DNA of 64,000 nt from Thermotogaceae bacterium (GTDB lineage Bacteria; Thermotogota; Thermotogae; B21-G9; HyVt-16): assembly GCA_029981435.1 (NCBI GenBank), contig JARRBB010000002.1, positions 1,042-65,041 on the forward strand, in the 5' to 3' direction. How positions within the stretch are numbered: the stretch's first letter is position 1; each line of letters begins with the position of its first letter. A program made the translations under genes and the position numbers. Below the pieces are notes generated by a model, which had not been told where the DNA came from, searched no databases, and saw only the letters and a program-made list of their open reading frames with translations. Below, one piece after another: positions 46,293 through 61,513 of the stretch.

Positions 46293-46803
46293 CTTGTTGG
46301 AAGAACTTAAAAAACTGTTTGGAAACTTCGAAGTACAGGAAATAGATGAAAGAGAAGTAAAAATAGACGTTGAATCAGATAAAGTGGTTGGAATATTAAC
46401 AACCTTAAAAAGCAAAGGATACTCCCATTTATCACTCTTGACATGTGTTGACTGGATTAATGAGAACAAATTCGAACTTATTTATATCCTTTATTCTTGG
46501 CAAAATGGTTGCAAATTCATTGTTGCTACATGGATAGAAAGAAAGAACCCGAAATTTGTAACCGTTATGAATTTATGGCCAGTTGCAAGATTTTACGAAA
46601 GGGAAATACACGAATTTTTTGGTGTTGAATTTGAAGGTAACGATGATATGAAACCACTTATACTGGAACTTTGGGACGACATACCACCTTTGAGGAAAGA
46701 TTTTGACCCGCTTGAATATTCTAAAAAGAAATTCCCTGGAAGACAGTATGATAAAGATGTGATTCAAGAAGCTTTGATCTTCAGAGGTGATAAAAATGGG
46801 TGA
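46267..46803 (+). CDS. NuoC-like 30-kDa subunit (MbxK-like)
   Basis: LSLLTCVDW...WPVARFYEREIHEFFGVEFEG is characteristic of NuoC. Confidence 0.75.
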   Translation: MSMMNSMNDLLEELKKLFGNFEVQEIDEREVKIDVESDKVVGILTTLKSKGYSHLSLLTCVDWINENKFELIYILYSWQNGCKFIVATWIERKNPKFVTVMNLWPVARFYEREIHEFFGVEFEGNDDMKPLILELWDDIPPLRKDFDPLEYSKKKFPGRQYDKDVIQEALIFRGDKNG

Positions 46804-47899
46804 AGTGAAACTTTTCTTTGGTCCAAATCATCCAGGGATGCATGGTAATTTTTCGGTTCATCTGTATGTTGAAGGAGATACAGTTGTAAAGGCAAAACCA
46901 CTTCCTGGTTTTCTTCATAGAGGTTTTGAAAAACTTATGGAAAGAAGAACATGGTTTCAAAACGTTGCACTTATACCTCGTATATGCGTCCCAGAACCTG
47001 ATATAAATGAAGTTTGCTATTCAATGGCAATTGAAAAAATAGCAAAAATTGATGTTCCAGAAAGAGCCCAGTGGATAAGGATGATCGTACTTGAACTTGC
47101 CAGAATAGCCAACCACCTTTGGAGTTTTGCAGGAATAGGAGGCCCCTTAGGACTGTATACTGGCCCATTTTGGGGTGTCGCTGATAGAGATAGAATACTG
47201 GACATCTTTGAACAGCTCACCGGTGCGCGTATTTATCATATGTACATAATACCTGGCGGAGTTAGAAAAGAAATGCCATCAAAGATACAGGATATGATAT
47301 CTCAAACTCTTGATTATATTGAATCAAGGCTACCCGATTACGAAAACTTGATTCTTAGAAACAGGATAGTTCAAACTCGTTTAAAAGGTATTGCACTTCT
47401 TGATAGAGAATCCGCACTTACAATGGGAGTAACCGGCATAGGTTTGAGAGCTACAGGTGTTCCATATGACCTAAGAAAGGTTGACCCATATCTTTACTAT
47501 AACTATGTTGATTTTGAGGTGCCAACAGCCACAGAAGGAGATGCTTATTCAAGGATTAAACTGAAATACTTGGAGATAAAGCAAAGCATAAGGATAATTA
47601 GACAAGTTCTGGAGAAGATGCCAGAAGGTCCAATCAACACGAAATTCAGTGATGGGAATGCTCTGAGATATAGAGTACCCAAAGGTTATGCATATGTCCA
47701 TGTCGAGGCTACAAGAGGTGAATACGGTTACTTCGTTGTTTCGAATGGTGAAGATAAACCATATAGGGTTACTGTAAGAGGCGCATCGTATCCTCAAGGA
47801 CTGTATGGTATAGAAAAGTATTTACCAGGCACAAGAATAGAAGATGTACCGATTTGGCTTGATACTATGGGTGTTTGTGCTCCTGAAATAGACAGATAA
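46796..47899 (+). CDS. NuoD / [NiFe]-hydrogenase large-subunit-like protein lacking both CxxC Ni-Fe ligand pairs (MbxL/Ehr-type)
   Basis: The N-terminal motif is RICVPE instead of RxCGxC, and the C-terminal motif is DTMGVCAPEIDR instead of DPCxxCxxH/R. Each motif therefore has one Cys plus Glu (CxxE). The ATG at 46796 follows GAGGTGA. Confidence 0.75.
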   Translation: MGEVKLFFGPNHPGMHGNFSVHLYVEGDTVVKAKPLPGFLHRGFEKLMERRTWFQNVALIPRICVPEPDINEVCYSMAIEKIAKIDVPERAQWIRMIVLELARIANHLWSFAGIGGPLGLYTGPFWGVADRDRILDIFEQLTGARIYHMYIIPGGVRKEMPSKIQDMISQTLDYIESRLPDYENLILRNRIVQTRLKGIALLDRESALTMGVTGIGLRATGVPYDLRKVDPYLYYNYVDFEVPTATEGDAYSRIKLKYLEIKQSIRIIRQVLEKMPEGPINTKFSDGNALRYRVPKGYAYVHVEATRGEYGYFVVSNGEDKPYRVTVRGASYPQGLYGIEKYLPGTRIEDVPIWLDTMGVCAPEIDR

Positions 47900-47914
47900 C
47901 GGAGGTGCTGTGAA

Positions 47915-49729
47915 ATGGAAAAAAGTTTTTTTGCCCCGGTTAAAGCATGGAAATTTCTATTTGAAAAACCAGTTACTATAAAAGTACCGAAAGAAAAAAG
48001 AAAGGCGAGTGAAAGGTATAGAGGTTTCCACATAAACGATTGGGACAAGTGTATAGGCTGCGGAACCTGTTCAAAAGTTTGTCCTACCGATGCAATACAG
48101 ATGGTAGAAGTTCCCGTTCTGGAAAAAAAGTTTGGTGAAAAACCTCAAAGACCCTCGATAGATTATGGACGTTGTTCATTCTGTGCAATGTGTGTTGATA
48201 TATGTACAACTGGTTCTTTGCAGATGACACGTGAATATGTTCATCTATCATCTCAACCAGAAGCCTTCATTTTCGTACCAACTGAAAAAGGAATAAAAAA
48301 TGTTGAGAACGTTGAAATAGGCTGGATAAAAGACGAAGATTCTGAATTGCTTGAACTTGAACGTGTCGAAATGGAAATGATAGAAGCAGAGGAAAGAGTG
48401 AAGTCGTTTATAGAATACGTAAAAGGTTACAGCAAAGAACAGGCAATACATGAAGCTGCAAGGTGCGTTGAGTGTGGAATATGTACTGATAGATGTCCTG
48501 AACATATGGATATCCCTGAATACATAAAATCCATCTGGCTTGATGATCTTGAAGAAGGCTTAAGATGGCTTTACAAAACAAACCCATTGTCATCTGTTTG
48601 TGGAAGAGTTTGTACCCATAGATGTGAAGAAGTATGTGCTATATCCAACAGAGGAGAGGCAGTGGCAATAAGATGGTTGAAAAGATACATAGTTGATAAT
48701 GTACCCTCTGAAGATTATATGAAGATTTTGAATTTTAATCCCAAGCCGAAAGAAGAAAGAATAGCTATCGTCGGTTCTGGACCAGCGGGACTTTCTGCGG
48801 CATATTTTCTGGCAACTATGGGATACAAAGTTGATATTTTCGAATCCTTGGCAAAACCTGGTGGTGTTATGAGATACGGTATCCCAAGGTACAGACTTCC
48901 TGATGAAGCACTCGATAAAGATATTGCTTTAATACAGGCACTTGGGGTTAGAATATTCACAAACACAACAATTGGAAAAGATATAAAGTTGGAAGAATTA
49001 AAAGAAAAATATGATGCAATTTTTGTCTCCACTGGATTCACACTTGGTCGTTCAACTGGTGTTCCTGGCACTGACCATCCTAAGGTTGTACAAGCACTTC
49101 CGTTGCTAAAAGATATAAGAGATTACTTGAGAGGCGAAGCTCCAAAGCCTGAAATACCAGAAACTCTTGTGGTAATAGGTGGAGGAAATGTTGCAATGGA
49201 TGTGGCGAGAAGTGTTGCAAGACTTCAGAAGATGGAATATGGAAAGGTCAATGTAAAACTTGCATGTCTTGAAAGAAATTTTGAAGAAATGCCAGCGGAT
49301 ATGGAAGAAATTATTGAAGGAAAAGAAGAAGGTGTAGAATTTTATCCCGGTTGGGGTCCTATAAGAATCATGATAGAAAAAGATGAAATAAAAGGTGTCG
49401 AATTTCAAAAGTGCCTGGAAGTTTTCGATTCAGATGGTAAGTTCAACCCAAAATTCGATGCTAATAACAAGATGATACTCCAAGGCGACATGGTTGTTGA
49501 AGCAATTGGACAGGCACCTGATTACTCTTATCTTCCAGAGGAAATAAAGTCTAAATTGCAATTTATAAGAGGAAGAATCCTGACAAACGAATACAGGCAA
49601 ACAGATATTCCATGGTTGTTTGCGGGAGGTGATATTGTTAACGGCCCAGATATCATACATGGCGTTGCAGATGGCTACTGGGCTGCTCGAGGTATAGATG
49701 ATTATTTATCAAGTAAAGAAAGGAGTTGA
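47915..49729 (+). CDS. fusion protein: 2x[4Fe-4S] ferredoxin (NuoI/MbhN-like) plus GltD/NfnB/SudA-like NAD(P)H-dependent FAD oxidoreductase
   Basis: Residues 1-130 carry CIGCGTCSKVCP and CSFCAMCVDICT. These are followed by RCVECGICTDRCPE and CGRVCTHRCEEVC, an FAD-binding IAIVGSGPAGLSAAYFLA and an NAD(P)H-binding VVIGGGNVAMDVARS. Confidence 0.8.
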   Translation: MEKSFFAPVKAWKFLFEKPVTIKVPKEKRKASERYRGFHINDWDKCIGCGTCSKVCPTDAIQMVEVPVLEKKFGEKPQRPSIDYGRCSFCAMCVDICTTGSLQMTREYVHLSSQPEAFIFVPTEKGIKNVENVEIGWIKDEDSELLELERVEMEMIEAEERVKSFIEYVKGYSKEQAIHEAARCVECGICTDRCPEHMDIPEYIKSIWLDDLEEGLRWLYKTNPLSSVCGRVCTHRCEEVCAISNRGEAVAIRWLKRYIVDNVPSEDYMKILNFNPKPKEERIAIVGSGPAGLSAAYFLATMGYKVDIFESLAKPGGVMRYGIPRYRLPDEALDKDIALIQALGVRIFTNTTIGKDIKLEELKEKYDAIFVSTGFTLGRSTGVPGTDHPKVVQALPLLKDIRDYLRGEAPKPEIPETLVVIGGGNVAMDVARSVARLQKMEYGKVNVKLACLERNFEEMPADMEEIIEGKEEGVEFYPGWGPIRIMIEKDEIKGVEFQKCLEVFDSDGKFNPKFDANNKMILQGDMVVEAIGQAPDYSYLPEEIKSKLQFIRGRILTNEYRQTDIPWLFAGGDIVNGPDIIHGVADGYWAARGIDDYLSSKERS

Positions 49730-49733
49730 TATC

Positions 49734-50231
49734 ATGGCTTTAAGTGATATTCTCGATATTGCTGAAAAATTTGAGATAGAAGGCTATAACTTCTATAAAT
49801 CAAAGAGAGATGAAATAAGAAGTTCCACAGCAAAAGAAACGTTTGATTTTCTTGCTAATATGGAAAAAGAACATACCGAATACATAAGAAGAGTAAAAGA
49901 AAAAATTGAAAATGTTGAAGTAGTTGAAACCAATGACTCTGAAACTACAGAAGAGTTTTTTGAAAAAAGGTTAAAATCTCAAAAGCTCGATGAATCTTTT
50001 TCGAAAGAAAACGATCTCGCTGACCTATCCATTTTAAGAATGGCGCTTTTGATTGAAAAAGATTTCGTAAATTATTACGCCAAAGCATATGAAACTACCG
50101 TTGACGAAAAGGCAAAAAAAATCTTCAAAATGTTGAAAAACTGGGAAGAACAGCATGTAAAATTGGTAGAAGAACTCATAAAAGAAATTTATGACAGAAA
50201 CAGACTTGACTTAGGTTTTTATCCTTTCTAA
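49734..50231 (+). CDS. ferritin-like/rubrerythrin-like diiron-fold protein (no rubredoxin domain)
   Basis: E-x-x-H-like helices (NMEKEHTEYI; NWEEQHVKLVEE) are present. The ATG at 49734 follows AGGAG. It is the last gene of the operon, just before a terminator. Confidence 0.55.
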   Translation: MALSDILDIAEKFEIEGYNFYKSKRDEIRSSTAKETFDFLANMEKEHTEYIRRVKEKIENVEVVETNDSETTEEFFEKRLKSQKLDESFSKENDLADLSILRMALLIEKDFVNYYAKAYETTVDEKAKKIFKMLKNWEEQHVKLVEELIKEIYDRNRLDLGFYPF

Positions 50232-50253: not shown

Positions 50254-50286
50254 GGCGGGCATCACGAGATGCCCGCTTTATTTTTT
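50254..50286 (+). terminator. rho-independent terminator
   Basis: The stem ggcgggcatc/gatgcccgc (loop acga) is followed by TTTATTTTTT. Confidence 0.8.
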
Positions 50287-50427
50287 ATGAATTATCTTGA
50301 GGGGTTGATTCCATATCTGTACAAGCTTGAAAAATAGATTGCCACTTTCTGTTTACTTTTTTGAAAATTTGCTTTATAATTTCTTTAATAAAGTTCGAAC
50401 TCTTTCAAATTTCAAGGAGGACTGTTT

Positions 50428-52200
50428 ATGAAAAAAATTCTTATTTTTTTGCTGCTTGTTGGCACTTTTTTTGTTATTTCTTTAATTTCAGAAGAACCCT
50501 ATATCAACTGGTTTTTAAATTCGAAATTTGAGATTGCTTCAGCGAGAATAGAGCAGATAATGGATAAAGATGGTACTTTCAAAGTTCATGAAATCATAAC
50601 CTATAATATGAGAAAACCTTTTAGAGGAGTTTATAGATATATACCACCGGAAAGATCTGTTGAAATAAGTGATATTAAAGTCTGGACAGAGGGAATAGAA
50701 ACCAAACACGTTGAACTTGAAAAAACTAACAAATCTTTCAGTGCCAGAGTATGGCTCGTACCCTTTGGCAGCAGCCAACAGCTTGATCCAAAAGAATACA
50801 GCAAGGTTGTCTTGCATGTTTCTTACACTGCAAGATATATTTTTGAAACTGGTGAAGATGTTGCCCAGGTTTTTAGACAATTCTGGGGTTCAGATTGGGA
50901 ATCACCCGTAAAAAACATTGAGGGAGTCTTTGTTTTTCCAGAAGATATAAAGCCATTGAAAATTTACACACATCCGAAAACGAAGGTGGAATCCAGTGGA
51001 AATACCTACAAAATTTCAATTTCTAAATTTCCTCCGTATTCATTCGCAGAAGCAAGGTTCATATTTAACCCTGTTAACTTGAAGTATTCTGTTAAATCGG
51101 AATTCACTATGAATGAGATCGAAAGAATAGAGCAAAGTTACTTATCAGGATATCTAATTAGAAAGATTTTACTTATAACAATATATGTTGTTTTTATTCT
51201 GATGCTGATAATGATTTACGCGTTCCTTGGAAAGGAACACAGTATATCTTATCAGGGTATCTATGAACGCGAAATTCCGTTTAGAGATTCACCAGATATT
51301 GTGAACAGCATGGTAAAAAACCTTACCGGGAAAGTTGATCAGGATGGAATGGCATCGATTATAATGAGTCTGTACAAAAAGAATTATATAGACTTCATTC
51401 AAAAAAATAAAAATAAGAGATCTATATTCATCAAAAAAGAGATCGCTGATAATGATCTCGCACATTCAGAAAAGGTGTTTTTAGAATTACTGGTGGAATT
51501 TTCAAGAGACAAAGTATTTGATTTTGAACAGTTAAAAAAAGAATTCAAAAGATCAACTACTAAAGCCCGGCGATTCACTTCGAAACTACGGAAATACGAA
51601 AATACTGTTGCAAGGGAAGTTAAAAAAAGGAAATATCTATCGAATACGGGTAATGTTCTCGCAAAGATAGTAGCCGTGATAATAATGCTTCTTGCAGTTG
51701 TTTTGAAAGAGTTCGTTCCAAAATTTCCGTACAATGATATGTACGATTTCTATTTCATAATGTCAATGATTTACTGGATAAGTGGTTCTTTTGTTTTAGT
51801 ACTTCCAAGAAGTGTCTTCGGAAGGTGGACAAAAATCGGAAGAGAATACTATTTAAAATGGAAGAATTTCGCAAAGTTTCTTACAGATTTTTCAACGCTA
51901 TCACAACATCCACCAGAATCAATCATCTTGTGGGAAGATTATTTGATCTATGCTACTGCACTTGGTATAGCTGATAAAGTTGAAAAGAACCTTAAAAAAC
52001 TCGTACCCGAGGAAATCTGGGAGCAGGAAAGTGAACATCCATACATATATTACATGCCAATGAGTTATTTAAGAAGCGAATTCTCCTCCCTTCGAAGTGT
52101 AGCAGTCTCCTCGACTTCAAGTACTTCCTCTGGTAGCGGTGGAAGCAGTGCTGGTGGAGCTGGTGGAGGTTCTGGAGGTGGAGGAGGTGGAGCATTTTAA
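50428..52200 (+). CDS. DUF2207-domain membrane protein with C-terminal Gly/Ser-rich tail
   Basis: A signal peptide, a roughly 200-aa extracytoplasmic domain and two transmembrane helices are followed by the tail SSTSSTSSGSGGSSAGGAGGGSGGGGGGAF. Confidence 0.6.
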   Translation: MKKILIFLLLVGTFFVISLISEEPYINWFLNSKFEIASARIEQIMDKDGTFKVHEIITYNMRKPFRGVYRYIPPERSVEISDIKVWTEGIETKHVELEKTNKSFSARVWLVPFGSSQQLDPKEYSKVVLHVSYTARYIFETGEDVAQVFRQFWGSDWESPVKNIEGVFVFPEDIKPLKIYTHPKTKVESSGNTYKISISKFPPYSFAEARFIFNPVNLKYSVKSEFTMNEIERIEQSYLSGYLIRKILLITIYVVFILMLIMIYAFLGKEHSISYQGIYEREIPFRDSPDIVNSMVKNLTGKVDQDGMASIIMSLYKKNYIDFIQKNKNKRSIFIKKEIADNDLAHSEKVFLELLVEFSRDKVFDFEQLKKEFKRSTTKARRFTSKLRKYENTVAREVKKRKYLSNTGNVLAKIVAVIIMLLAVVLKEFVPKFPYNDMYDFYFIMSMIYWISGSFVLVLPRSVFGRWTKIGREYYLKWKNFAKFLTDFSTLSQHPPESIILWEDYLIYATALGIADKVEKNLKKLVPEEIWEQESEHPYIYYMPMSYLRSEFSSLRSVAVSSTSSTSSGSGGSSAGGAGGGSGGGGGGAF

Positions 52201-52214
52201 AAAGAAGCCTGATT

Positions 52215-53135
52215 TTGTTTTCAGTAATCCTGATAACAAGTATTTTTATATTAATCCAGAGTTTGAGTAGAGTTGAAATAAGTTTCTATCCTCCAAAACA
52301 TTATTATGTGAATGAAATTGTAGAGATAAAAATAAGTCCGATTCGTTTAGCTTTTTCAGTAAGAGTTTTCAACGGGAACAAAATAGAGGAAAAAGTGAAA
52401 AATGGAAAACTTGATTTGTTTGTTAGAGTTTATCGAAAAACGGAGATTCTGATTTTCAGCTTGATACCTTTGAAGTTAATAAAATTCGAAATACCCTATC
52501 ATGAGGATTACACCGATGATAATTCAAATGGGTTCCCTGATGTATTAGAACTAGATTACAGTGATTCAATTAATTTCAGAAACTGGTTCCTTGAGATTTC
52601 GAAAAGTCAATTTGCAAAGAAATCAAATTTGTGGAAAGATAGGGATTGTTCTGGTTTAATAAGGTTTGCCTATAAAGAAGCCTTAAAAAAACATGATGAA
52701 AACTGGGAAAAAAACTCCGATTTCGTACATCATTCTTCTATTCAGAAACCAGATGTAAAAAAATACAATTATCCCGATATTCCACTCATCGGTACTAAGA
52801 TTTTCAAAATATTGGACTTTGAGTTCGGAGTTTTTGCTGATGCATATCATCTTTTGAAATACAACGTTGATTTTGTTTCAAAAGACTACAAAAAGGCAAA
52901 ATCGGGAGATATTCTTTTTTTCTATCATCCTTCATCTGTAGATATGCCATATCATTCGATGATATATACCGGAGATGGTTTGCTTTATCATACAGGACCT
53001 ATAGAAGATAAAGAAGGCGAATTACGTTATTTAAAGCTCGAGGATGTACTCAAAAATTTTCCTCTGGATTGGCAACCATTGCCATCGAACAACAAATTTC
53101 TCGGTTTTTTCAAATTTAAAATATTGAGTTACTGA
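52215..53135 (+). CDS. hypothetical exported protein, possibly DUF1175/YfaT-like (Cys/His-containing)
   Basis: It has an N-terminal signal anchor, and the motifs DCSGLIRFAYKEAL and YHSMIYTGDGLLYHTGP. The TTG start has no clear ribosome-binding site. The family assignment is from memory. Confidence 0.4.
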   Translation: MFSVILITSIFILIQSLSRVEISFYPPKHYYVNEIVEIKISPIRLAFSVRVFNGNKIEEKVKNGKLDLFVRVYRKTEILIFSLIPLKLIKFEIPYHEDYTDDNSNGFPDVLELDYSDSINFRNWFLEISKSQFAKKSNLWKDRDCSGLIRFAYKEALKKHDENWEKNSDFVHHSSIQKPDVKKYNYPDIPLIGTKIFKILDFEFGVFADAYHLLKYNVDFVSKDYKKAKSGDILFFYHPSSVDMPYHSMIYTGDGLLYHTGPIEDKEGELRYLKLEDVLKNFPLDWQPLPSNNKFLGFFKFKILSY

Positions 53136-53146
53136 GAGGTGAAAAT

Positions 53147-56100
53147 ATGACATTTAAGAGAGGAATATCTATATTCTTTTTCCTGTTTTTGTTTTGTACT
53201 CTTTCATATTCAAATGTTTATTTGCAATCTTTCATAACAATTCATGGAGAAGGCAGCTTTAATTTCTATCAAAGTTCTGAAAAGGCAGAAAAAGTTGAAA
53301 TGGTTATGTATAAAATCACGCTTCAAGAGATGATTAGATATTTCAAAGATGGCAAACTACCATTTTCGTGGTTTAATAAACCTTTTCTTAAAAAGATCTG
53401 GAACGTTGAAGGTAAAAAATGGAATTCAATAAGAGTGAATACCGATAAGCTGGATTATGGTATTTACATGGTCATTGTGAAATCCGATGAAGATACAGCA
53501 ATATCAATACTTTCAAAAACAAGAATCTTGGGGAAAATAATCTATCTTGAGGACTCAGCTTTTTTGAAATTTTACGACATAATAACAGGGGAATTTTTGA
53601 AAGATACCACCATTTATGCTTTGGATCAAGATGGTGAAGTTGAAGTCATTGGTAAGACTGATTCAAAAGGTGAAATTGTGATTGAAAAGGAAAACAACGA
53701 GGGTAAACTCATTTTTATAGAATATGAAGGAGCACTTTTCAGCTTTTTGGACTGGCCATATTATTTCGAAAACAATCATACCCTCTCATTTTTTACTGAT
53801 AGGCCCATATACAAACCAGGAGATACCATAAAATTCGGTGGAATCATCAGGGAAAAATCAGACAATAATCAAACCAAAGTACCTGCGGGCAAAAAAATCA
53901 GGATTGAAATAACTGATTCAAACGATAGAAAATTTTATGATAAAGAACTTCAATTAGATGATTTCGGAATTTTTGAAGATTCTTTCGAAACCTTTCAGGA
54001 GATAAAGCGCGGAAGTTATTCGGTAAAAATTACCGTCGATGATTCAAGCTTTTGGAGAACATTCAGAATCGAGGACTATGTGAAACCGAAATTCGAGGTG
54101 AAATTGTTCGGGAAAGAACGGTTCAAGGCAGAAAACTTAGCAAAGTTCAAGGTTGTTGCGAAATACTATTATGGTTCACCATTAAATAATGTTGATTTTG
54201 GATATACCGTATACATGTTGAAAAATTACGAAAAGGTTTTTTATGATAGTGGAATAGCAAGATTGAATTCAAACGGAGAAGCGGAGATACCAATTCAATT
54301 TTCTGATATTACGACTCCAACCAAGTTTGTTATTTCCGTAAAAATAAGTGATGAAAGTGGTGCAGAAGTTGAAGAAGAGAAAGAATTCACCGTCTATCCT
54401 TATGATTTCTATGTAGAATCTGAATATGACTTCTATGTGAAACTTGGAGAAAAATTTCAGCTGGATCTTTCCGTAAAAGATTTGAATTCCACTCCTGTAT
54501 CGACGGATTTGTTGATACTTATAAAGTCGGATTCGACAACATCTCTTCGAGTCTTAGCAAAGAGTGATGAAAATGGGAAGGCATTTTTCGAGTATCTTCC
54601 AAATAAATCTGGAAGATATGAGTTTGAGATCTGGACTCTGGGCGAAAAGAAAGCAAGGTTATTCAAAGGAAATTTCCTAGTCTACAAATCCTACTATCAA
54701 ACCGTTCTTAAGGAACAATTTAGAATCAATCTTCTATCCGAAAAGATAATTCCTGGAAATTTCTTAACTCTCGAGTTGTTTGCACCATTTGAAGAGTTGA
54801 GTGCGAAACTGGTTATATTTGCAGACAACTGGACGAAATTTCTGGATGTTGATTTCAAAGATGGCAAAGCGTTGATAAAGCAACTTCTGCCAGATGAGAT
54901 ACTATCCAACAATATTTCGATTTTAGTTTTTGCTGCAAAAGCCGGTAGGAAACTGGAGCTGTATCGAAGTTATGGAATTTCAAAAGAAGCACTAACATTT
55001 GAGCTTGAAATTAAAACCGACAAAGAAATCTATTTACCTGGCAAAGAAGTACAATTATCCATTGTCAGTGAGGAAAAAGAAGCCGAGTTCTTTGCTGCGA
55101 TTGTAGACAAAGCTGTTCTCGATTTAACAGGTTTAGAGAACTTCTGGTTACAAGAAATCCAGCGGATATACGATTATTATTCTGGCCGAGTTTTTAGAGA
55201 TTTTGAATCTTATTCATGGGAATTGAGAGAATTTTTTAGCTTAATGACGGATGAAAAAGCTCAAGAATTGCTTGCACAAATTAAGAGTTCAGGAGTAGCA
55301 TTGAGATCGAACTTCAACGATACTGCACTTTGGTTTCCTAAATTAAGAACAGCTAAGAATGGGAAAGCAACTGTGCGGTTTAAACTACCTGATAATCTTA
55401 CAACATGGAAAATCCTGGTGGTTGGTATAAATAAAGAAGGCAAATACGGCTACAACGATAAAGAAATAAGAACTACAAAGGATATCGTTCTAACCCCAAT
55501 ACTGCCTGAATACCTTCTGGAAAAAGATGTAGTGAACATTGGAATGATGATAAACAACAATACTGAAGAAGGACAAAATTTTGAACTATTATGCCAGGCA
55601 GATGAATATGAATTTTATGATGATTTGTTCGTTCCAGAGAATTCGCGTGGAGTAATAAATTTTGTTTACGAAGTGCCATCGAACGAATCAAAGGTTAGTT
55701 TTAAAATGATCGCAGAATCGACCTCAACAGGCTTGGGAGATGGTGTTGTCGTTTCAAGAGAAATAAAACCACTCGTATTTGTAAAAAATTCAAAAAGATC
55801 AGGTGTGCTAAACAATCAAACAAACCAAATAGATCTTCCATCTGGTAAGTTCAACGGTGTTCTTTCAATATCTTCTGATATACTTGGAATGCTTGTTGAT
55901 TCTATAGAACAGCTTGTCGGTTATCCATATGGTTGTGTTGAACAAACCATGAGTAAATTTTTACCGACAATAATATACAAAAAACTATTGAGAAAAAGCC
56001 AGAGAGATTTTGTTGTTTCAATGGCATCAGAAGAAATAGATAAAATGATAGAGAGTTCTCTAAAAAGACTTTACAGTTTTCAACACTCTGATGGTGGATG

Positions 56101-57547
56101 GGGATGGTGGAAAAACGATGATACCTCATCTTTCATGACTGCTTATGTACTCCACGGGTTTCATATAGCCATAAAAGAAGGATACAAAATAAACGAAGAT
56201 GTTTTAAAAGAGGGATTGAACGCTTTGAAAAAGCTTCTAACCGAAAAAGACGACTCTTTCTTCTATTACATGCTATATGTACTCAGTATATATGGGAAAA
56301 ATAGTTTGAAACAGATAACTTTAAAAGACATTGAAAAAGATTATGAGAAAGTACTATATCTTTTGGTGCAATTAAGAACAAGCACAGAAAAAGAACCAAT
56401 CTTCAAGAATTTACTCGAAAAGGCAGGCAACTACGATCATATAAAATTGGACGAGACTCCATATTTTCTTGATGAAGTACAACTGAACGCTTTGGTTTTA
56501 CAGGAACTTTTCAGTATTGAAAAACCAACCGATGAAATAGCAAAATTTCGCGAACTATTGACAAATTACCTTATCAATAAACGAGTAGGAAGAACCTGGA
56601 AAAACACCAAACAATCGGCTTTCTGTGTTTTAGCATTGTCTAATTTAAACCTAACTACTCAGAACGGAGTTTATGCAGAAATAAAAATCAACAGCACAGA
56701 AAAATTCAAAGGTAAAATAACGGGAATTCTTCAAATACCTGTTGAAGCAGAAAATGTGTCTATTTACATGAATACAGATGAAATTCTTTTCTGGGGTCTG
56801 GATGGTGGCATGCCGATACCACTTGAAACTTATAAACCAATTTCTTCAAAATTTGCAATGACAAGAGAAATACAGAAAAGAACAAAGGTTAAAATAGATA
56901 AACAAGATATCTCTGTTTTTGTTCCGATAAAAAATAGATTCGTTGTTGAAAGTATTGAAACAATAAAAGCACCTGTATCCGAAGCAACTGTTTCTCATTT
57001 TTATCTTAACAATATGAATTCAAATGCCTTCATACTTCCAGATGGATCACTGATTTTCAACAACGAATACACAGGGCTAAAATTAAAAGGAGGTTTGATA
57101 GAACTCGACGAAGATAGTCTGACAATTTTAGGATCAATTTTTAGAGACAATATACAATTAACTGATAAAGGCATTTACAAATTGAAATTCACGGAAAATT
57201 CTCCAATAAAAATTGGCGATATATTGAGAAGCCAGATAAAATTTTTTGGTTCGGGAGATTACATTGTGGTTGAAGACCCGATACCATCAGCAGCTATCCC
57301 AATAAGAAATTATAGAGAAAGGGTCTTGAGAAAATTTTTTACAGATGATTTCCGATATTCAGAAAAAGAATTACGAAAAGATGGAACTCTAATATTTTTA
57401 CAGAGAATGCAGAACCACGTTTTGTACAATTATTATAGAATAATGTTATCTGGTAAATTCACTATCCTCCCTGCCAAAGCATGGGAAATGTATGAACCTG
57501 AGAATTTAGTAAGTTCCGAAATTGAAACGATAGAGGTGGAATTTTGA
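53147..57547 (+). CDS. bacterial alpha-2-macroglobulin family protein with intact thioester motif (GCVEQ)
   Basis: A signal peptide precedes a 1466-aa protein with MG-domain-like beta repeats. The thioester motif GYPYGCVEQTM lies at about nt 55918-55950, and an A2M_comp-like region follows. Confidence 0.8.
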   Translation: MTFKRGISIFFFLFLFCTLSYSNVYLQSFITIHGEGSFNFYQSSEKAEKVEMVMYKITLQEMIRYFKDGKLPFSWFNKPFLKKIWNVEGKKWNSIRVNTDKLDYGIYMVIVKSDEDTAISILSKTRILGKIIYLEDSAFLKFYDIITGEFLKDTTIYALDQDGEVEVIGKTDSKGEIVIEKENNEGKLIFIEYEGALFSFLDWPYYFENNHTLSFFTDRPIYKPGDTIKFGGIIREKSDNNQTKVPAGKKIRIEITDSNDRKFYDKELQLDDFGIFEDSFETFQEIKRGSYSVKITVDDSSFWRTFRIEDYVKPKFEVKLFGKERFKAENLAKFKVVAKYYYGSPLNNVDFGYTVYMLKNYEKVFYDSGIARLNSNGEAEIPIQFSDITTPTKFVISVKISDESGAEVEEEKEFTVYPYDFYVESEYDFYVKLGEKFQLDLSVKDLNSTPVSTDLLILIKSDSTTSLRVLAKSDENGKAFFEYLPNKSGRYEFEIWTLGEKKARLFKGNFLVYKSYYQTVLKEQFRINLLSEKIIPGNFLTLELFAPFEELSAKLVIFADNWTKFLDVDFKDGKALIKQLLPDEILSNNISILVFAAKAGRKLELYRSYGISKEALTFELEIKTDKEIYLPGKEVQLSIVSEEKEAEFFAAIVDKAVLDLTGLENFWLQEIQRIYDYYSGRVFRDFESYSWELREFFSLMTDEKAQELLAQIKSSGVALRSNFNDTALWFPKLRTAKNGKATVRFKLPDNLTTWKILVVGINKEGKYGYNDKEIRTTKDIVLTPILPEYLLEKDVVNIGMMINNNTEEGQNFELLCQADEYEFYDDLFVPENSRGVINFVYEVPSNESKVSFKMIAESTSTGLGDGVVVSREIKPLVFVKNSKRSGVLNNQTNQIDLPSGKFNGVLSISSDILGMLVDSIEQLVGYPYGCVEQTMSKFLPTIIYKKLLRKSQRDFVVSMASEEIDKMIESSLKRLYSFQHSDGGWGWWKNDDTSSFMTAYVLHGFHIAIKEGYKINEDVLKEGLNALKKLLTEKDDSFFYYMLYVLSIYGKNSLKQITLKDIEKDYEKVLYLLVQLRTSTEKEPIFKNLLEKAGNYDHIKLDETPYFLDEVQLNALVLQELFSIEKPTDEIAKFRELLTNYLINKRVGRTWKNTKQSAFCVLALSNLNLTTQNGVYAEIKINSTEKFKGKITGILQIPVEAENVSIYMNTDEILFWGLDGGMPIPLETYKPISSKFAMTREIQKRTKVKIDKQDISVFVPIKNRFVVESIETIKAPVSEATVSHFYLNNMNSNAFILPDGSLIFNNEYTGLKLKGGLIELDEDSLTILGSIFRDNIQLTDKGIYKLKFTENSPIKIGDILRSQIKFFGSGDYIVVEDPIPSAAIPIRNYRERVLRKFFTDDFRYSEKELRKDGTLIFLQRMQNHVLYNYYRIMLSGKFTILPAKAWEMYEPENLVSSEIETIEVEF

Positions 57548-58056
57548 GAATCTTTCCAATATCCGTATTTTTGATTTTAATAGCGATAATCAATTTTGGT
57601 TTCAGATCTTTTGAAATAAATCCTTTTGATTATCTGAATGAAAGAGATTTGAAAATTCTAAAAGCTTTGGGTTTGAATCTTGAAAATATTCCAGAACAGA
57701 TTTTGGTAATAGAAACTGATAACTTATCAGAATTTGTCAATATTTCGAATGCTCCACATTTTTTATCGGCAATAACCAGAGACGGTAAGATATTTATTCA
57801 GAATAAGAATTATCTTTTAAAGAAATTTGATAAAACTTTGAAACATGAGGTTCTTCATGTAATATTGCATGCACTGGATTTGCCATATTTTTTAGAGGAA
57901 GGACTGGTGTGCGAATTAACTGAGGAATGGAAAGGTAGAAAGAGAAGTATAATAAATGTAGAGAACACAAACTACACTGAACTTAGAACACTGTGGGAGT
58001 TGGAATCTTATTCTTATTCTTGTTGGATAAAAATTAAAGAGATCTTTGGATTCTAA
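57544..58056 (+). CDS. small exported protein with HExxH motif (putative mini zinc-metallopeptidase-like)
   Basis: A TTG start overlaps the A2M stop as TTGA. A signal peptide and the motif KHEVLHVILH are present. Confidence 0.5.
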   Translation: MRIFPISVFLILIAIINFGFRSFEINPFDYLNERDLKILKALGLNLENIPEQILVIETDNLSEFVNISNAPHFLSAITRDGKIFIQNKNYLLKKFDKTLKHEVLHVILHALDLPYFLEEGLVCELTEEWKGRKRSIINVENTNYTELRTLWELESYSYSCWIKIKEIFGF

Positions 58057-58094
58057 ATTTCTTGAATTACTTTTTGGTTATGTAAAACTTATCG

Positions 58095-58115
58095 TGATAT
58101 ACTTTCAATTGAAAG
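58095..58115 (+). promoter_or_regulatory. extended -10 element (TGaTATACT) overlapping a perfect 14-bp palindrome CTTTCAATTGAAAG (candidate operator)
   Basis: The extended -10 element lies at 58095-58103 and the palindrome at 58102-58115, upstream of the lipoprotein gene at 58154. Confidence 0.45.
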
Positions 58116-58153
58116 TGATTTCTATACAAGTAATTTTAAGGAGGTAAAGGAGG

Positions 58154-59746
58154 ATGCATAAAAAGAAATTCCTTGTTTTGATTCTAACTATTTTTATCGT
58201 AGTGGCTTTTGTAGTAACCTCGTGTGACCTTATAAAAAAAGAAACACCTAAACAAACGAATACTGCTCCCAATGAGCCTTCCTCTCCTGTTCCAGCAGAT
58301 GGTGCTACCAGCGTTTCAATAAACACATTGCTCAGCTGGGTTTGTTCTGATCCCGATGGTGATGTCTTAAGTTACGATTTGTATTTCGGCGAAAATGAAC
58401 AGAATCTTGTTTTGAAGGCATCAAATTTGACTTCAAACAGTTATCAACTGAGCAATCTTGAGTATTCAAAAACATATTACTGGAAAGTAGTCGCAAAGGA
58501 TACCGATGGTAAATCAGCCATCGGACCGGTATGGTCTTTCACTACAGAACCTCATCCAAACAGAGCGCCTAAATTTTCAACGCTTTCGCCATTGAACAAT
58601 TCAAACAACGTTCCTTTGGATGTCTTTTTGTCTTGGAATGCATATGATGAAGATGGTGATACTGTAACTTACGATATATACTTTGGAACCAATCCAAACC
58701 CATCGCTCATAAAACAGAATGTCCCAGTTGAAACCTTCCAACCTATAACGGAATTTGAGCTCAGTTACAACACTTATTATTACTGGAAAGTTGTGGCAAA
58801 AGACACAAAAGGTGCTCAAACAAGTAGCGATGTGATGGTTTTCAAAACTCAAATGCCGCCTAACAATCCGCCTGTAACTCCTTCTAACGGTTGGCCCTCG
58901 AATGTCACAAATATGCCACTTGATTTAACACTTTCTTGGACATGTTCAGATCCCGATGGTGATAACCTAACGTATGATCTGTATTTTGGTACAAGCTCAA
59001 ATCCATCAAAGATTTTGAATAATTACAGTGGTAATAGTTACACACTTCACAGTCTCAATGGTAACACAACATATTACTGGAAAGTTGTGGCGAAAGATGG
59101 AAAAGGTGGGGTAACATCAGGACCTGTATGGTCTTTTACAACCTTAGGAAATAATTCTCCAAATGCTTTTAATTTAATTAATCCATCAAATGGCCAGACA
59201 AATGTGCCGGTGAACGGAGTAACTTTGCAATGGAATCCATCGACAGATCAAGATGGTGACTCGGTATATTATGATCTGTATTTCGGCACCAATCCTAACC
59301 CACCTCTTTACGCAGGACATCTTTACGGCACAAGTTATGCATTACCAAGATTGAATTACAGCACAACTTATTACTGGAAAGTAATCGCAAGGGATGGAAA
59401 GGGTGGCAGTACAAGTTCTGGCGTGAGTAGCTTCACAACTGATGCAAACCAGGCTCCACAAATAAACTCCATGCAACCTTCAAATAATTCAAACAATCAA
59501 TTGAGAGCCAATTTAGCTTTGAACTGGAGTGTAACTGACCCCAACAACGATAACTGGACAGTTGATGTTTACCTTGGGACTAATCCGGTTAACCTCCAGA
59601 AAATAGCGGATGGTTTGACTGGTAACAGTTACGTTATAAAAGATGTTTTGGCAGCTAATACCACTTATTACTGGCAAATCGTTGTGAAGGATCAAGGAGG
59701 TCTTTCAACGACATCTTCTTTATATAATTTCACGACTGGAAAATAA
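58154..59746 (+). CDS. lipoprotein with five tandem FN3-like repeats of about 100 aa
   Basis: A signal peptide with a lipobox-like VTSC is followed by five repeats, each carrying DPDGD..YDLYFGTNPNP...TYYWKVVAKD...SFTT. Confidence 0.7.
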   Translation: MHKKKFLVLILTIFIVVAFVVTSCDLIKKETPKQTNTAPNEPSSPVPADGATSVSINTLLSWVCSDPDGDVLSYDLYFGENEQNLVLKASNLTSNSYQLSNLEYSKTYYWKVVAKDTDGKSAIGPVWSFTTEPHPNRAPKFSTLSPLNNSNNVPLDVFLSWNAYDEDGDTVTYDIYFGTNPNPSLIKQNVPVETFQPITEFELSYNTYYYWKVVAKDTKGAQTSSDVMVFKTQMPPNNPPVTPSNGWPSNVTNMPLDLTLSWTCSDPDGDNLTYDLYFGTSSNPSKILNNYSGNSYTLHSLNGNTTYYWKVVAKDGKGGVTSGPVWSFTTLGNNSPNAFNLINPSNGQTNVPVNGVTLQWNPSTDQDGDSVYYDLYFGTNPNPPLYAGHLYGTSYALPRLNYSTTYYWKVIARDGKGGSTSSGVSSFTTDANQAPQINSMQPSNNSNNQLRANLALNWSVTDPNNDNWTVDVYLGTNPVNLQKIADGLTGNSYVIKDVLAANTTYYWQIVVKDQGGLSTTSSLYNFTTGK

Positions 59747-59772: not shown

Positions 59773-59808
59773 AATATCCCCCGATTTTCGGGGGATATTT
59801 TATTTTTT
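59773..59808. terminator. bidirectional rho-independent terminator between convergent genes
   Basis: The stem atatccccc/gggggatat (loop gattttc) is followed by TTTATTTTTT on the + strand and is T-rich on the minus side. Confidence 0.75.
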
Positions 59809-61513
59809 AAAGGTTTTTCTTTATCAAAACGGCTAGTTTTTCGCTCTTCACAACTTCTTTTATTTCATTTATGCTCGCATTCCTTACTTTCTCAACACTT
59901 CCAAATCTTTTCAAAAGTGCCTTCTTCCTTTTTGGACCTATTCCAGGTATATTGTCAAGTTTGGACTCCACAATTCTTTTATCTCTTAATTTTGAGTGGA
60001 AAGAGTTTGCAAATCGATGTGATTCATCCCTTACCTTTATAAGCAGTCTCAAAGCAATATCATCAAGGGGTAATTTTAAATCTGTTTTGGCACCAGGGAA
60101 AACTATTCTTTCATCTTCTTTTGCAATACCAACAACCGGACAACTTTTTCCAATACTTTTCAAAGCCTCAACTGCAGAATTGACCTGTCCTTTTCCACCA
60201 TCTATGAATAGAAGATCTGGTAGATCATATTTCTGATATCTGCGAATTACAACCTTTTTTATAGAAAGAAAATCGTCAGGGCTGTTTATACTATCAAATC
60301 TATACCGCCTGTATTCATTTTTCATCGGTTTACCATCTACAAAGACCACCAAAGATGCTACCGTAAAAAGCCCCTGCGTATGTGATATATCTATTCCTTC
60401 TATCCGACGTGGAAGATGAGGAAGTTCGAGTATTTCCTTTAACCTGTTAAGGGCATTTTCAGTATCTTCTATTTTTCTGTACTCTTCCTCCCAGTTCAGT
60501 CTGGATAGTTCGAGAATTTTAATCTCAAAATCATTCCTTGGTTTACCTACATAATTAGTGCCAAACGTTTTAGAGATTTCAGATTCAGTTTTAAAATTTG
60601 TCAAAATAATTTCTGGAATAGAGAGTTTCAAACCAAAATACAGCTGTCTTAAAAAATCTTCAGGTTCTCCATTGAATTCAAAAGAAAGTTTCCCCAGAAG
60701 ATTTCCATTCCTTATTCTGAGAACTTCTCCGACACCTTTTTTGAAAAATATACCATCGACATCTAAATTTTCATTAAAAACAACGAACTGTGGTTCGAAT
60801 ATATTCCTTATTCCAAAAATCAGGTCCCTTATGTTTGCTGCTTTCTCAAATTCCAACAATTCTGATAGTCTTTTCATCTCTTTTTCAAGTTCTTCTATGA
60901 GTTGTTTGATTTCACCATTCAAAAATTCTTTGAACTTTCTAACCTGCTTATTGTATTCCTCTGCTGTTATTTTACCGGCACATGGTGCTGAACACATATT
61001 TAGATGGTACTCAAGACAAGGCTTTCGGGATTTATCAGGTTTTATATCGATTGAACAGCTTCTTATCTTGAATAACTTGTATGATAAATTCAGAAGTCTT
61101 CTCACAAAACCTATATCTGTATAAGGACCGTAATACTCTCCTTCTTCTTTCTTTTCTCTAACAATTTTAATAGTCGGAAACTTTTCGTTGGATATGAATA
61201 TATAAGGATACCATCTTGTTTCCTTTAACATAGCATTGTAAACTGGTTTTTCTTTAAAAATCAGATTGGCTTCCAGCAGGAGAGCTTCTTTTTCTGAATT
61301 TACAACTATATAGTCAAGTTCATCTGCTTCATTCACAATTTTTTCAGCTTTTGAACCAGCATTTTTACTGAAATAGGAGAGAACTCGTTTTTTCAAATTT
61401 TTGGCCTTTCCTATGTATATCACCTTGCTGGAGTTTTTAAAAATATAAACTCCAGGAGTTTCAGGAAATTCATTCTTTACCTTTTCATACAATTTCAAAC
61501 TACTTTTTTTCAT
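59807..61513 (-). CDS. uvrC: excinuclease ABC subunit C
   Basis: An N-terminal GIY-YIG domain (PGVYIFKNSSKVIYIGKAKNLKKRVLSYF), a UvrBC-interaction region and a C-terminal RNaseH-like/HhH region are present. Confidence 0.85.
   Translation of the reverse strand: MKKSSLKLYEKVKNEFPETPGVYIFKNSSKVIYIGKAKNLKKRVLSYFSKNAGSKAEKIVNEADELDYIVVNSEKEALLLEANLIFKEKPVYNAMLKETRWYPYIFISNEKFPTIKIVREKKEEGEYYGPYTDIGFVRRLLNLSYKLFKIRSCSIDIKPDKSRKPCLEYHLNMCSAPCAGKITAEEYNKQVRKFKEFLNGEIKQLIEELEKEMKRLSELLEFEKAANIRDLIFGIRNIFEPQFVVFNENLDVDGIFFKKGVGEVLRIRNGNLLGKLSFEFNGEPEDFLRQLYFGLKLSIPEIILTNFKTESEISKTFGTNYVGKPRNDFEIKILELSRLNWEEEYRKIEDTENALNRLKEILELPHLPRRIEGIDISHTQGLFTVASLVVFVDGKPMKNEYRRYRFDSINSPDDFLSIKKVVIRRYQKYDLPDLLFIDGGKGQVNSAVEALKSIGKSCPVVGIAKEDERIVFPGAKTDLKLPLDDIALRLLIKVRDESHRFANSFHSKLRDKRIVESKLDNIPGIGPKRKKALLKRFGSVEKVRNASINEIKEVVKSEKLAVLIKKNL

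Follow-up and report, generated by a model that had tools for sequence, protein, structure and literature searches.

The 64,000-nucleotide (nt) stretch of Thermotogaceae bacterium DNA analyzed here (contig JARRBB010000002.1; hereafter the window) contains, at positions 50428-59746, five genes arranged around an α2-macroglobulin (A2M) gene. This block is probably a single operon encoding a Thermotogota-specific envelope protease-trap complex of the Mag/Yfa kind. Two points are new. As a lineage variant of a bacterial system already known, the block represents a Thermotogota form of the MagC-A2M module in which the accessory genes differ, and the gene after A2M encodes a rare, unannotated HExxH protein, here called mini-gluzincin, which tracks the MagC-A2M module across several phyla.

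An initial annotation, made from the sequence alone, had placed five plus-strand open reading frames (ORFs) here and assigned them to DUF2207, DUF1175-like, A2M, HExxH and FN3 lipoprotein. All five were confirmed at the same coordinates, the domain calls were borne out by Pfam, PDB and motif checks, and every one of the five proteins has a hydrophobic segment at its N-terminus. The coding features are as follows.

50428..52200, plus strand, DUF2207 polytopic membrane protein, 590 amino acids (aa) (PF09972, 6e-25; PF20990, 2e-55)
52215..53135, plus strand, MagC/YfaT-type DUF1175 protein, 306 aa (PF06672, 2e-63)
53147..57547, plus strand, A2M, 1466 aa (Pfam and PDB relatives)
55931..55945, plus strand, codons of the thioester motif G-C-V-E-Q, residues 929-933 (Cys930, Gln933)
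57544..58056, plus strand, mini-gluzincin, predicted membrane-anchored Peptidase MA-like protein, 170 aa (profile comparison, motif conservation)
57844-57858, plus strand, HEVLH codons of mini-gluzincin
57895-57903, plus strand, E118-E119-G120 codons of mini-gluzincin
58154..59746, plus strand, predicted lipoprotein with five FN3-like β-sandwich repeats, 530 aa (fn3 and Ig-like Pfam matches)

Operon structure and conservation of gene order

The spacing between consecutive genes is 14 nt, 11 nt, a 4-nt overlap and 97 nt, and a hairpin scan of the block found no convincing plus-strand terminator between the five genes. Terminator-like hairpins were found at its two ends.

50254..50287, plus strand, intrinsic terminator-like hairpin (50254-50277; 10-bp stem, 7 GC pairs), then the T-run TTATTTTTTA
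59773..59799, plus strand, strong terminator-like hairpin (12-bp stem), then TTATTTTTTA

The first hairpin closes the upstream rubrerythrin gene and forms the 5′ boundary of the operon, and the second forms the 3′ boundary. Because the gaps are short or overlapping and terminators occur only at both ends, 50428-59746 is likely one transcription unit, as judged from the sequence.

Among 5.8 billion clustered proteins, the A2M had four close relatives, at 100, 76, 57 and 46% identity, and all further relatives showed at most ~40% identity in partial alignments only. The order DUF2207, MagC, A2M, 165-170-aa protein and FN3 is common to three other Thermotogota contigs, L001, L002 and L003, with A2M identities to the window of 46%, 57% and 76%, respectively. 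DUF2207 stands first in L001 and L003, and L002 includes its 3′ end; the FN3 gene takes the fifth place in L001 and L002 alone, and L003 stops inside A2M. The expectation of the initial annotation that the gene order would be conserved in related genomes therefore holds. The flanks are wholly different: rubrerythrin and uvrC in the window, GCV_T/DUF2007 and HTH_11-3H in L001, and IclR in L003.

A wider set of loci was obtained by scanning an alignment of 27 DUF1175 proteins against one genome per GTDB species, which gave 285 confirmed loci. The best 80 of these were taken with 10-kb flanks, and their ORFs were called and searched with the window proteins; together with the window and its three relatives, 84 loci were compared. 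Homologues of DUF2207 were found in four of them and homologues of the FN3 protein in three, all in the clade of the window, indicating that these two proteins are clade-specific additions. Kosmotogaceae and Atribacter carry a three-gene cassette, MagC-A2M-HExxH, in which the HExxH gene overlaps or abuts the A2M gene (L006, L007, L010-L013). This cassette resembles the window in the core order, in YGC[VT]EQT and in the mini-gluzincin at the A2M stop, and its A2Ms are the nearest relatives of the window A2M in the tree described below, but it has neither DUF2207 upstream nor FN3 downstream. Identity to the window is 25-30% for the HExxH protein, ~25% for A2M and 37-48% for MagC. As the simplest version of the module, the three-gene Thermotogota cassette would be a convenient minimal model for biochemistry, in which thioester stability could also be studied should the host turn out to be thermophilic.

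The cassette raises the possibility that MagC, A2M and the HExxH protein alone are the functional unit, and that DUF2207 and FN3 are unrelated envelope genes kept adjacent by recent common descent. The restriction of these two genes to the window clade, the stand-alone cassette, the lack of relationship between DUF2207 and MagB, and the 97-nt gap with a separate strong ribosome-binding site before the FN3 gene are all in its favor. Nevertheless, the five-gene order persists down to 46% A2M identity despite the different flanks of the window, L001 and L003; the DUF2207-magC gap is just 14 nt, with no internal terminator; and all five products are envelope proteins. We consider this three-gene interpretation possible, though rather less than probable. 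The initial annotation had also suggested that the block could be a self-contained protease-trap or anti-protease surface defence module. The data are best read as a protease-trap module of the envelope, whereas "self-contained" was an overstatement given that DUF2207 and FN3 occur only in a narrow clade.

The A2M and its thioester motif

The window A2M has its domains in the canonical order (MG2 215-299, A2M 726-813, TED 907-1025 and bMG10 1353-1452, by Pfam), and among proteins of solved structure insect TEP1, complement C4, E. coli YfhM and CD109 come closest to it. The bait-region family PF07703 matched weakly at residues 616-660 (18.3 bits versus a cut-off of 22.7), and in the orthologues the match is likewise weak or faint. 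YPYGCVEQT of the window (Cys930) is in residue-by-residue register with YPYGCLEQT of E. coli YfhM (ECAM), and YGCVEQTM is unchanged in all four orthologues. The intact GCVEQ noted in the initial annotation thus stands at the homologous position, which suggests that the thioester is formed. Cys17 lies in LFLFC, a poor lipobox, and the orthologues have Y, S or G at the same site; since the Cys is not conserved, a lipoprotein reading of the A2M was rejected.

According to the literature, Type I A2M combines a thioester with PBP1c, and Type II has no CXEQ and belongs to a six-gene operon (PMC5764988, PMC3735191). On the basis of this split the initial annotation took a thioester A2M beside a DUF1175-like partner to be unusual, a mixture of both operon types in which a PbpC-type thioester would be joined to the partners of the thioester-less YfaS-type operon. 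The absence of CxEQ from E. coli YfaS and from the A2Ms of fluorescent Pseudomonas is in line with that idea.

The survey does not bear it out. An A2M with [YWF][GR]CxEQ directly after magC was present in 56 of the 84 loci, and one without CxEQ in 13; in four loci the A2M was truncated by a contig end, and in 11 no A2M was adjacent. The 56 of 69 assessable cases (81%) show taxonomic breadth and not an unbiased frequency, as the 80 loci taken were those most similar to the query. The positive loci come from Thermotogota, Atribacterota, Spirochaetota (including Leptospira), Myxococcota, Acidobacteriota, and Beta- and Gammaproteobacteria, the proteobacterial ones being Burkholderia, Paraburkholderia, Bordetella, Lysobacterales and P. 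citronellolis. Among these, full mag-type operons occur in Burkholderia and its relatives and in P. citronellolis; L051 from Burkholderia, for example, carries the canonical operon in complete form, consisting of DUF2138, MagC, A2M (with YGCAEQTS), SpoIID+DUF2300 and two DUF2135 genes. The 13 negative loci are 11 fluorescent-group Pseudomonas and two heavily fragmented "delta" metagenome-assembled genomes (MAGs). In E. coli K-12 the order is yfaA (DUF2138), yfaT (DUF1175), yfaS, yfaQ (DUF2300) and yfaP (DUF2135), and the YfaS frame is without CxEQ.

In a crude neighbor-joining tree of the A2Ms (BLOSUM62 distances, no bootstrap), the thioester-less proteins were nested in an otherwise thioester-positive proteobacterial clade. 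The window A2M grouped with the MagC-linked A2Ms of Thermotogota, and E. coli YfhM was placed outside all MagC-linked A2Ms, near the metazoan and archaeal sequences of the set. Clear loss of the thioester is thus confined to fluorescent Pseudomonas and E. coli YfaS, and thioester plus DUF1175 is the common state among MagC-linked A2Ms, not a mixture. The "Type II without thioester" of the literature is a generalization from Pseudomonas and E. coli. Accordingly, the dichotomy of thioester with PbpC versus no thioester with Mag is to be corrected, and in this sample it is the well-studied proteins of Pseudomonas and E. coli (YfaS) that depart from the rule. Furthermore, Pfam found no pbpC and no transglycosylase or transpeptidase domain beside the A2M gene, whose neighbors are DUF2207, MagC, HExxH, FN3, rubrerythrin and uvrC. 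With neither a conserved lipobox nor a pbpC neighbor, nothing of the PbpC type is mixed in, and a novel hybrid operon is highly improbable.

The window operon shares with P. aeruginosa magABCDEF and E. coli yfa (Type II) a magC directly upstream of A2M on the same strand, an A2M with a signal peptide and no lipobox, and products that are all envelope proteins; in addition, a membrane protein of ~600 aa is encoded just upstream and an HExxH-bearing protein just downstream. It differs from them by retaining the thioester motif and by its other genes: none of the five proteins has a Pfam match to DUF2138 (MagB), DUF2300 (MagE) or DUF2135 (MagA/F), and DUF2207, the 170-aa mini-gluzincin and the FN3 lipoprotein are present in their stead. 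The operons of Burkholderia/Paraburkholderia, Bordetella and Lysobacterales (e.g., L051) have the same MagC-A2M adjacency and YGC[AV]EQT, but they retain DUF2138, SpoIID+DUF2300 and DUF2135 and show no match to the mini-gluzincin profile. As for Type I, E. coli YfhM (ECAM) and Salmonella A2M have YPYGC[VL]EQT at the same position and the same MG2, A2M, TED and bMG10 domains. However, the similarity of the window A2M to YfhM is only local (58 bits), and ECAM has a lipobox (LAGC), a length of 1653 aa and a pbpC neighbor, none of which applies to the window A2M.

In L017, L018, L020, L021, L025 and L045 the MagC homologue has no A2M directly downstream; in the KSB1 MAG L017 it is followed by a 1102-aa Sortilin/BNR-repeat protein. 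DUF1175 is therefore not strictly tied to A2M. We also observed that L070 (OZ240079.1, labelled Leclercia tamurae) has a mag operon layout matching the P. kilonensis and P. brassicacearum loci.

The MagC-like protein

The initial annotation had called the product starting at 52215 DUF1175-like, and it is a true homologue: PF06672 matched with 214 bits (cut-off 27) over profile positions 6-225 of 226, and the sequence of the P. aeruginosa MagC structure (PDB 7bk8) matched with an E-value of 8.8e-21. A weak match to NlpC/P60 was also found. At the N-terminus the protein has a membrane anchor and a domain of ~80 aa, and an NlpC/P60-like domain carries Cys145, His247 and His259, three residues that are invariant in the alignment of 27 diverse DUF1175 proteins. 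A 2023 classification describes DUF1175 as catalytically inactive and as binding peptidoglycan (PMC10318531, citing Zouhir et al. 2021).

The start of magC differs among public gene calls, which give 306, 290 or 275 aa. The TTG start of the 306-aa form retains the N-terminal hydrophobic helix, which is itself conserved in the orthologues, and the shorter calls therefore probably cut off the membrane anchor.

The mini-gluzincin

The TTG start of the mini-gluzincin gene and the TGA stop of A2M overlap as TTGA, and GAGGTGG lies immediately 5′. The translationally coupled putative metalloprotease of the initial annotation is thus supported both by this overlap and by the profile comparison below, which makes the protein peptidase-like. 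The mini-gluzincin itself matched nothing in Pfam (even at an E-value of 1), in NCBIfam or among the PDB sequences, and it has only three close homologues. A profile search of 1.84 billion representative proteins gave 21 matches at E≤1e-3. In alignments of 18-20 sequences H101, E102, E118, E119 and G120 are invariant and H105 is nearly so, giving the motif HExxH-x13-E in the context P-x-W/F-x-E-E-G-L; two Cys residues, C123 and C160, are conserved within the clade.

One weak match, P0244, is a true Peptidase_MA_2 member (59.3 bits on PF13485; cut-off 32.4), and hhalign aligned the mini-gluzincin profile with it at a probability of 98.7% (E 2.7e-16) with the motifs in register. From this comparison the mini-gluzincin appears to be a compact, divergent relative of the Peptidase MA (gluzincin) superfamily that stands outside PF13485; since the window protein alone has no Pfam match, it is placed as a superfamily relative and not as a member of the Pfam family. 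In common with Peptidase_MA_2 (PF13485) it has HExxH followed by Glu in a W/F-L-x-E-G context and, in the predicted model, a β-sheet before the active-site helix. This context resembles the WLNEG motif of M1 peptidases. In contrast to Peptidase_MA_2, its domain is only ~150 aa, the His-to-Glu spacer is shorter (13 residues), C123 and C160 are clade-conserved, it falls below the Pfam threshold and it has no significant structural neighbor in the PDB.

AlphaFold2 with the 20-sequence alignment gave a model with a predicted local distance difference test score (pLDDT) of 94.8, in which the HExxH helix (94-111) and the Glu helix (115-126) are preceded by an N-terminal helix and a four-stranded sheet and followed by a C-terminal helix. 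With the four close sequences the result was poor (pLDDT 74; other models 33-55), and Foldseek matches of that model were noise. The weak Foldseek matches of the better model were enriched for gluzincins (collagenase H, ACE2, aminopeptidase N, ERAP1 and lethal factor). The family profile searched against PDB sequences gave only spurious RBM16 matches and aminopeptidase N at an E-value of 3.1.

Linkage of the HExxH domain to the MagC-A2M module

A hidden Markov model (HMM) of the mini-gluzincin matched a cluster neighbor in 25 loci from five phyla, either directly downstream of A2M or abutting magC; beyond Thermotogota and Atribacterota, the positive loci belong to Acidobacteriota, Myxococcota and Spirochaetota, including Leptospira. 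A small unannotated metallopeptidase-like family is thus genetically tied to A2M-MagC in several phyla. There was no match in any of the 33 Pseudomonadota loci, and none in the upstream flanks of ~10 kb besides the Petrotoga gene abutting magC. In this locus (Petrotoga sp. UBA5851, L015:9453-12801) the HExxH gene overlaps magC and the A2M gene (1549 aa, thioester) is 4 kb upstream. The place of A2M after HExxH/magC is occupied there by a 687-aa DUF4901 (YcdB/YcdC repeat) protein.

The loci L022, L027, L036, L035 and L023 (Leptospira, Spirochaetes, Chloracidobacterium and Myxococcota) have MagC-A2M (with thioester) together with DUF2135/Glucodextran_B-like, PBP-type transpeptidase and SpoIID-like genes. 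This MagC-A2M-DUF2135-transpeptidase-SpoIID arrangement is a third flavor of A2M operon with a strong peptidoglycan theme. In a Vicinamibacteria locus (L060:16101-18506, minus strand; see also L048:14703-16460), an 801-aa protein fuses a transpeptidase (54-252), SpoIID (307-388) and the HExxH domain (653-742). The gene is convergent to the MagC-A2M pair and ~0.8 kb past it, and by its domain matches the fusion would link the peptidase domain to cell-wall enzymes in the manner of a Rosetta stone.

These arrangements bear on another explanation, namely that the block is mainly a cell-wall remodelling or repair module, with MagC as an active NlpC/P60 endopeptidase, the mini-gluzincin as a peptidoglycan-cleaving enzyme and the A2M doing no more than shielding the repair site from proteases. 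Such shielding would be in line with the logic proposed for A2M-PBP1C. The Cys/His/His triad invariant in the 27 DUF1175 proteins also points in this direction, as do the SpoIID domain of MagE-type proteins, the PBP-type transpeptidase and SpoIID-like genes after MagC-A2M in Spirochaetota, Acidobacteriota and Myxococcota, and the Vicinamibacteria fusion. The window operon itself, however, has no transpeptidase, glycosyltransferase or SpoIID gene according to Pfam, and no Peptidase_MA_2-type protein is known to be a peptidoglycan hydrolase. The catalytic residues of P. aeruginosa MagC, which reportedly binds peptidoglycan, are also said to be in an inactive conformation. We therefore regard a primarily cell-wall function as unlikely and prefer the protease trap.

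A further lead concerns MagE. Proteobacterial MagE/YfaQ proteins (SpoIID + DUF2300) end in an invariant L-T-H-E-Y-x-H-L-A-F…E…E, as in E. coli yfaQ (L084:2149-3798) and L051:10535-12259; no mention of this LTHEYxHLAF motif of DUF2300 was found in two Mag papers. Profile-profile comparison of the mini-gluzincin with the DUF2300 C-terminal domain gave a probability of 12%, or 57% (E 1e-4) with broader profiles, with the motifs in register. In the reciprocal direction, an HMM of the DUF2300 C-terminal domain searched against all locus ORFs found no mini-gluzincin above noise (L006 at E 0.68). The mini-gluzincin may thus be related to the HEYxH-bearing C-terminal domain of MagE/YfaQ, a weak link drawn from the 12-57% scores and the motif register alone.

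In P. aeruginosa, MagD traps protease, MagB anchors MagD, and deletion of magE blocks the processing of MagD (PMC5764988). This last effect makes it plausible that, whichever of the two operon types is considered, the gene after A2M specifies a metallopeptidase that acts in processing. We tentatively extend this idea, with a good deal of doubt, to every lineage: the gene beside MagC-linked A2Ms would always encode a gluzincin-type domain, a dedicated protease that processes or activates the macroglobulin. It would take the form of a 170-aa stand-alone protein in Thermotogota and Atribacterota, a SpoIID/transpeptidase fusion in Acidobacteriota and the DUF2300 domain in Proteobacteria. If true, such A2Ms would be armed by a cognate partner and would not be purely passive traps, and the role of MagE in MagD processing would be explained. 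The idea gives the part played by MagE/DUF2300 in A2M processing a possible explanation that can be tested.

Proposed function of the complex

In the protease-trap interpretation, the A2M would leave the cytoplasm by means of its signal peptide and enter the compartment that separates the cytoplasmic membrane from the outer sheath. As has been shown for the E. coli and Salmonella A2Ms, a protease's cut in the bait region would expose the buried Cys930-Gln933 thioester, which would then link covalently to that protease. The MagC-like protein, with its NlpC/P60 fold and held at the membrane by its N-terminal helix, may tie the complex to peptidoglycan, as has been proposed for P. aeruginosa MagC. 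The mini-gluzincin would be a membrane-anchored zinc metallopeptidase with H101, H105 and E119 as ligands and E102 as the catalytic residue, and would most likely mature or process the A2M or clear spent complexes. For DUF2207 we infer a possible role as a membrane scaffold, and the FN3 protein might similarly contribute to scaffolding or anchoring.

Several points weigh against this interpretation. For the five proteins together, the protease-trap model rests on sequence and analogy. The DUF2207 and FN3 genes are found in a narrow clade only, and their linkage may in part reflect shared descent; moreover, the 97-nt gap and the strong ribosome-binding site of the FN3 gene make a promoter of its own possible. 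The literature calls DUF1175 catalytically inactive (PMC10318531), yet the Cys/His/His residues are invariant in our alignment. As no Pfam model matches the mini-gluzincin, its link to the superfamily is transitive via profile comparison, and Foldseek of the pLDDT-94.8 model against the PDB found nothing significant, the best match being the collagenase H peptidase domain at an E-value of 0.39.

The DUF2207 and FN3 proteins

The DUF2207 protein starts with a signal or anchor segment, continues with the DUF2207 N domain and about three internal hydrophobic helices, and ends in DUF2207_C and a Gly/Ser-rich tail, with hydrophobic segments at residues 1-24, 239-270, 404-434 and 441-459. It fills the slot of MagB and is roughly MagB-sized, though non-homologous: homology to MagB (DUF2138) was considered and rejected (hhalign probability 0.15%). 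Its Gly/Ser/Ala-rich tail of ~25 residues (…SSGSGGSSAGGAGGGSGGGGGGAF; window positions 52120-52197) is encoded by GGT/GGA-rich codons and is kept in the orthologues.

The five FN3 repeats are ~99 aa each and end in YYW(K/Q)(V/I)V. The protein begins with a signal peptide, and its lipidation is predicted from the lipobox with an invariant Cys in which that peptide ends; the lipobox is V-T-S-C|D for the window, T-T-S-C|D for L001 and A-T-S-C|D for L002.

Flanking features and deposited annotation

The remaining features around the operon are the following.

50352..50380, plus strand, promoter-like TTTACT-17-TATAAT before the DUF2207 gene (consensus match only)
50413-50420, plus strand, ribosome-binding site AAGGAGGA of the DUF2207 gene
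59807-61513, minus strand, uvrC, convergent with the operon beyond the 59773-59799 hairpin

The count of promoter-like sites in the region was not above that in shuffled sequence. An Rfam scan of the window found a single tRNA, distant from the cluster, and nothing else, and the NCBIfam search of the five proteins gave nothing useful. Identical proteins are on deposit as MDI3471883-MDI3471888 from a "Thermotogaceae bacterium" MAG; there, the A2M (MDI3471885.1) is annotated as "alpha-2-macroglobulin [Thermotogaceae bacterium]" and its neighbors are hypothetical.

The stretch directly upstream, 46787-50231, contains the rubrerythrin-like gene and genes for a NuoD-like subunit and for a PRK13984-type Fe-S/FAD oxidoreductase of 604 aa whose N-terminus is NuoI-like; a strong terminator parts these genes from the A2M operon, to which they appear unrelated. 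In L001 (20161-23759), a fervidolysin-like S8 protease and a CarboxypepD_reg protein, which have no counterpart in the window, are encoded ~3.5 kb downstream of the cluster.

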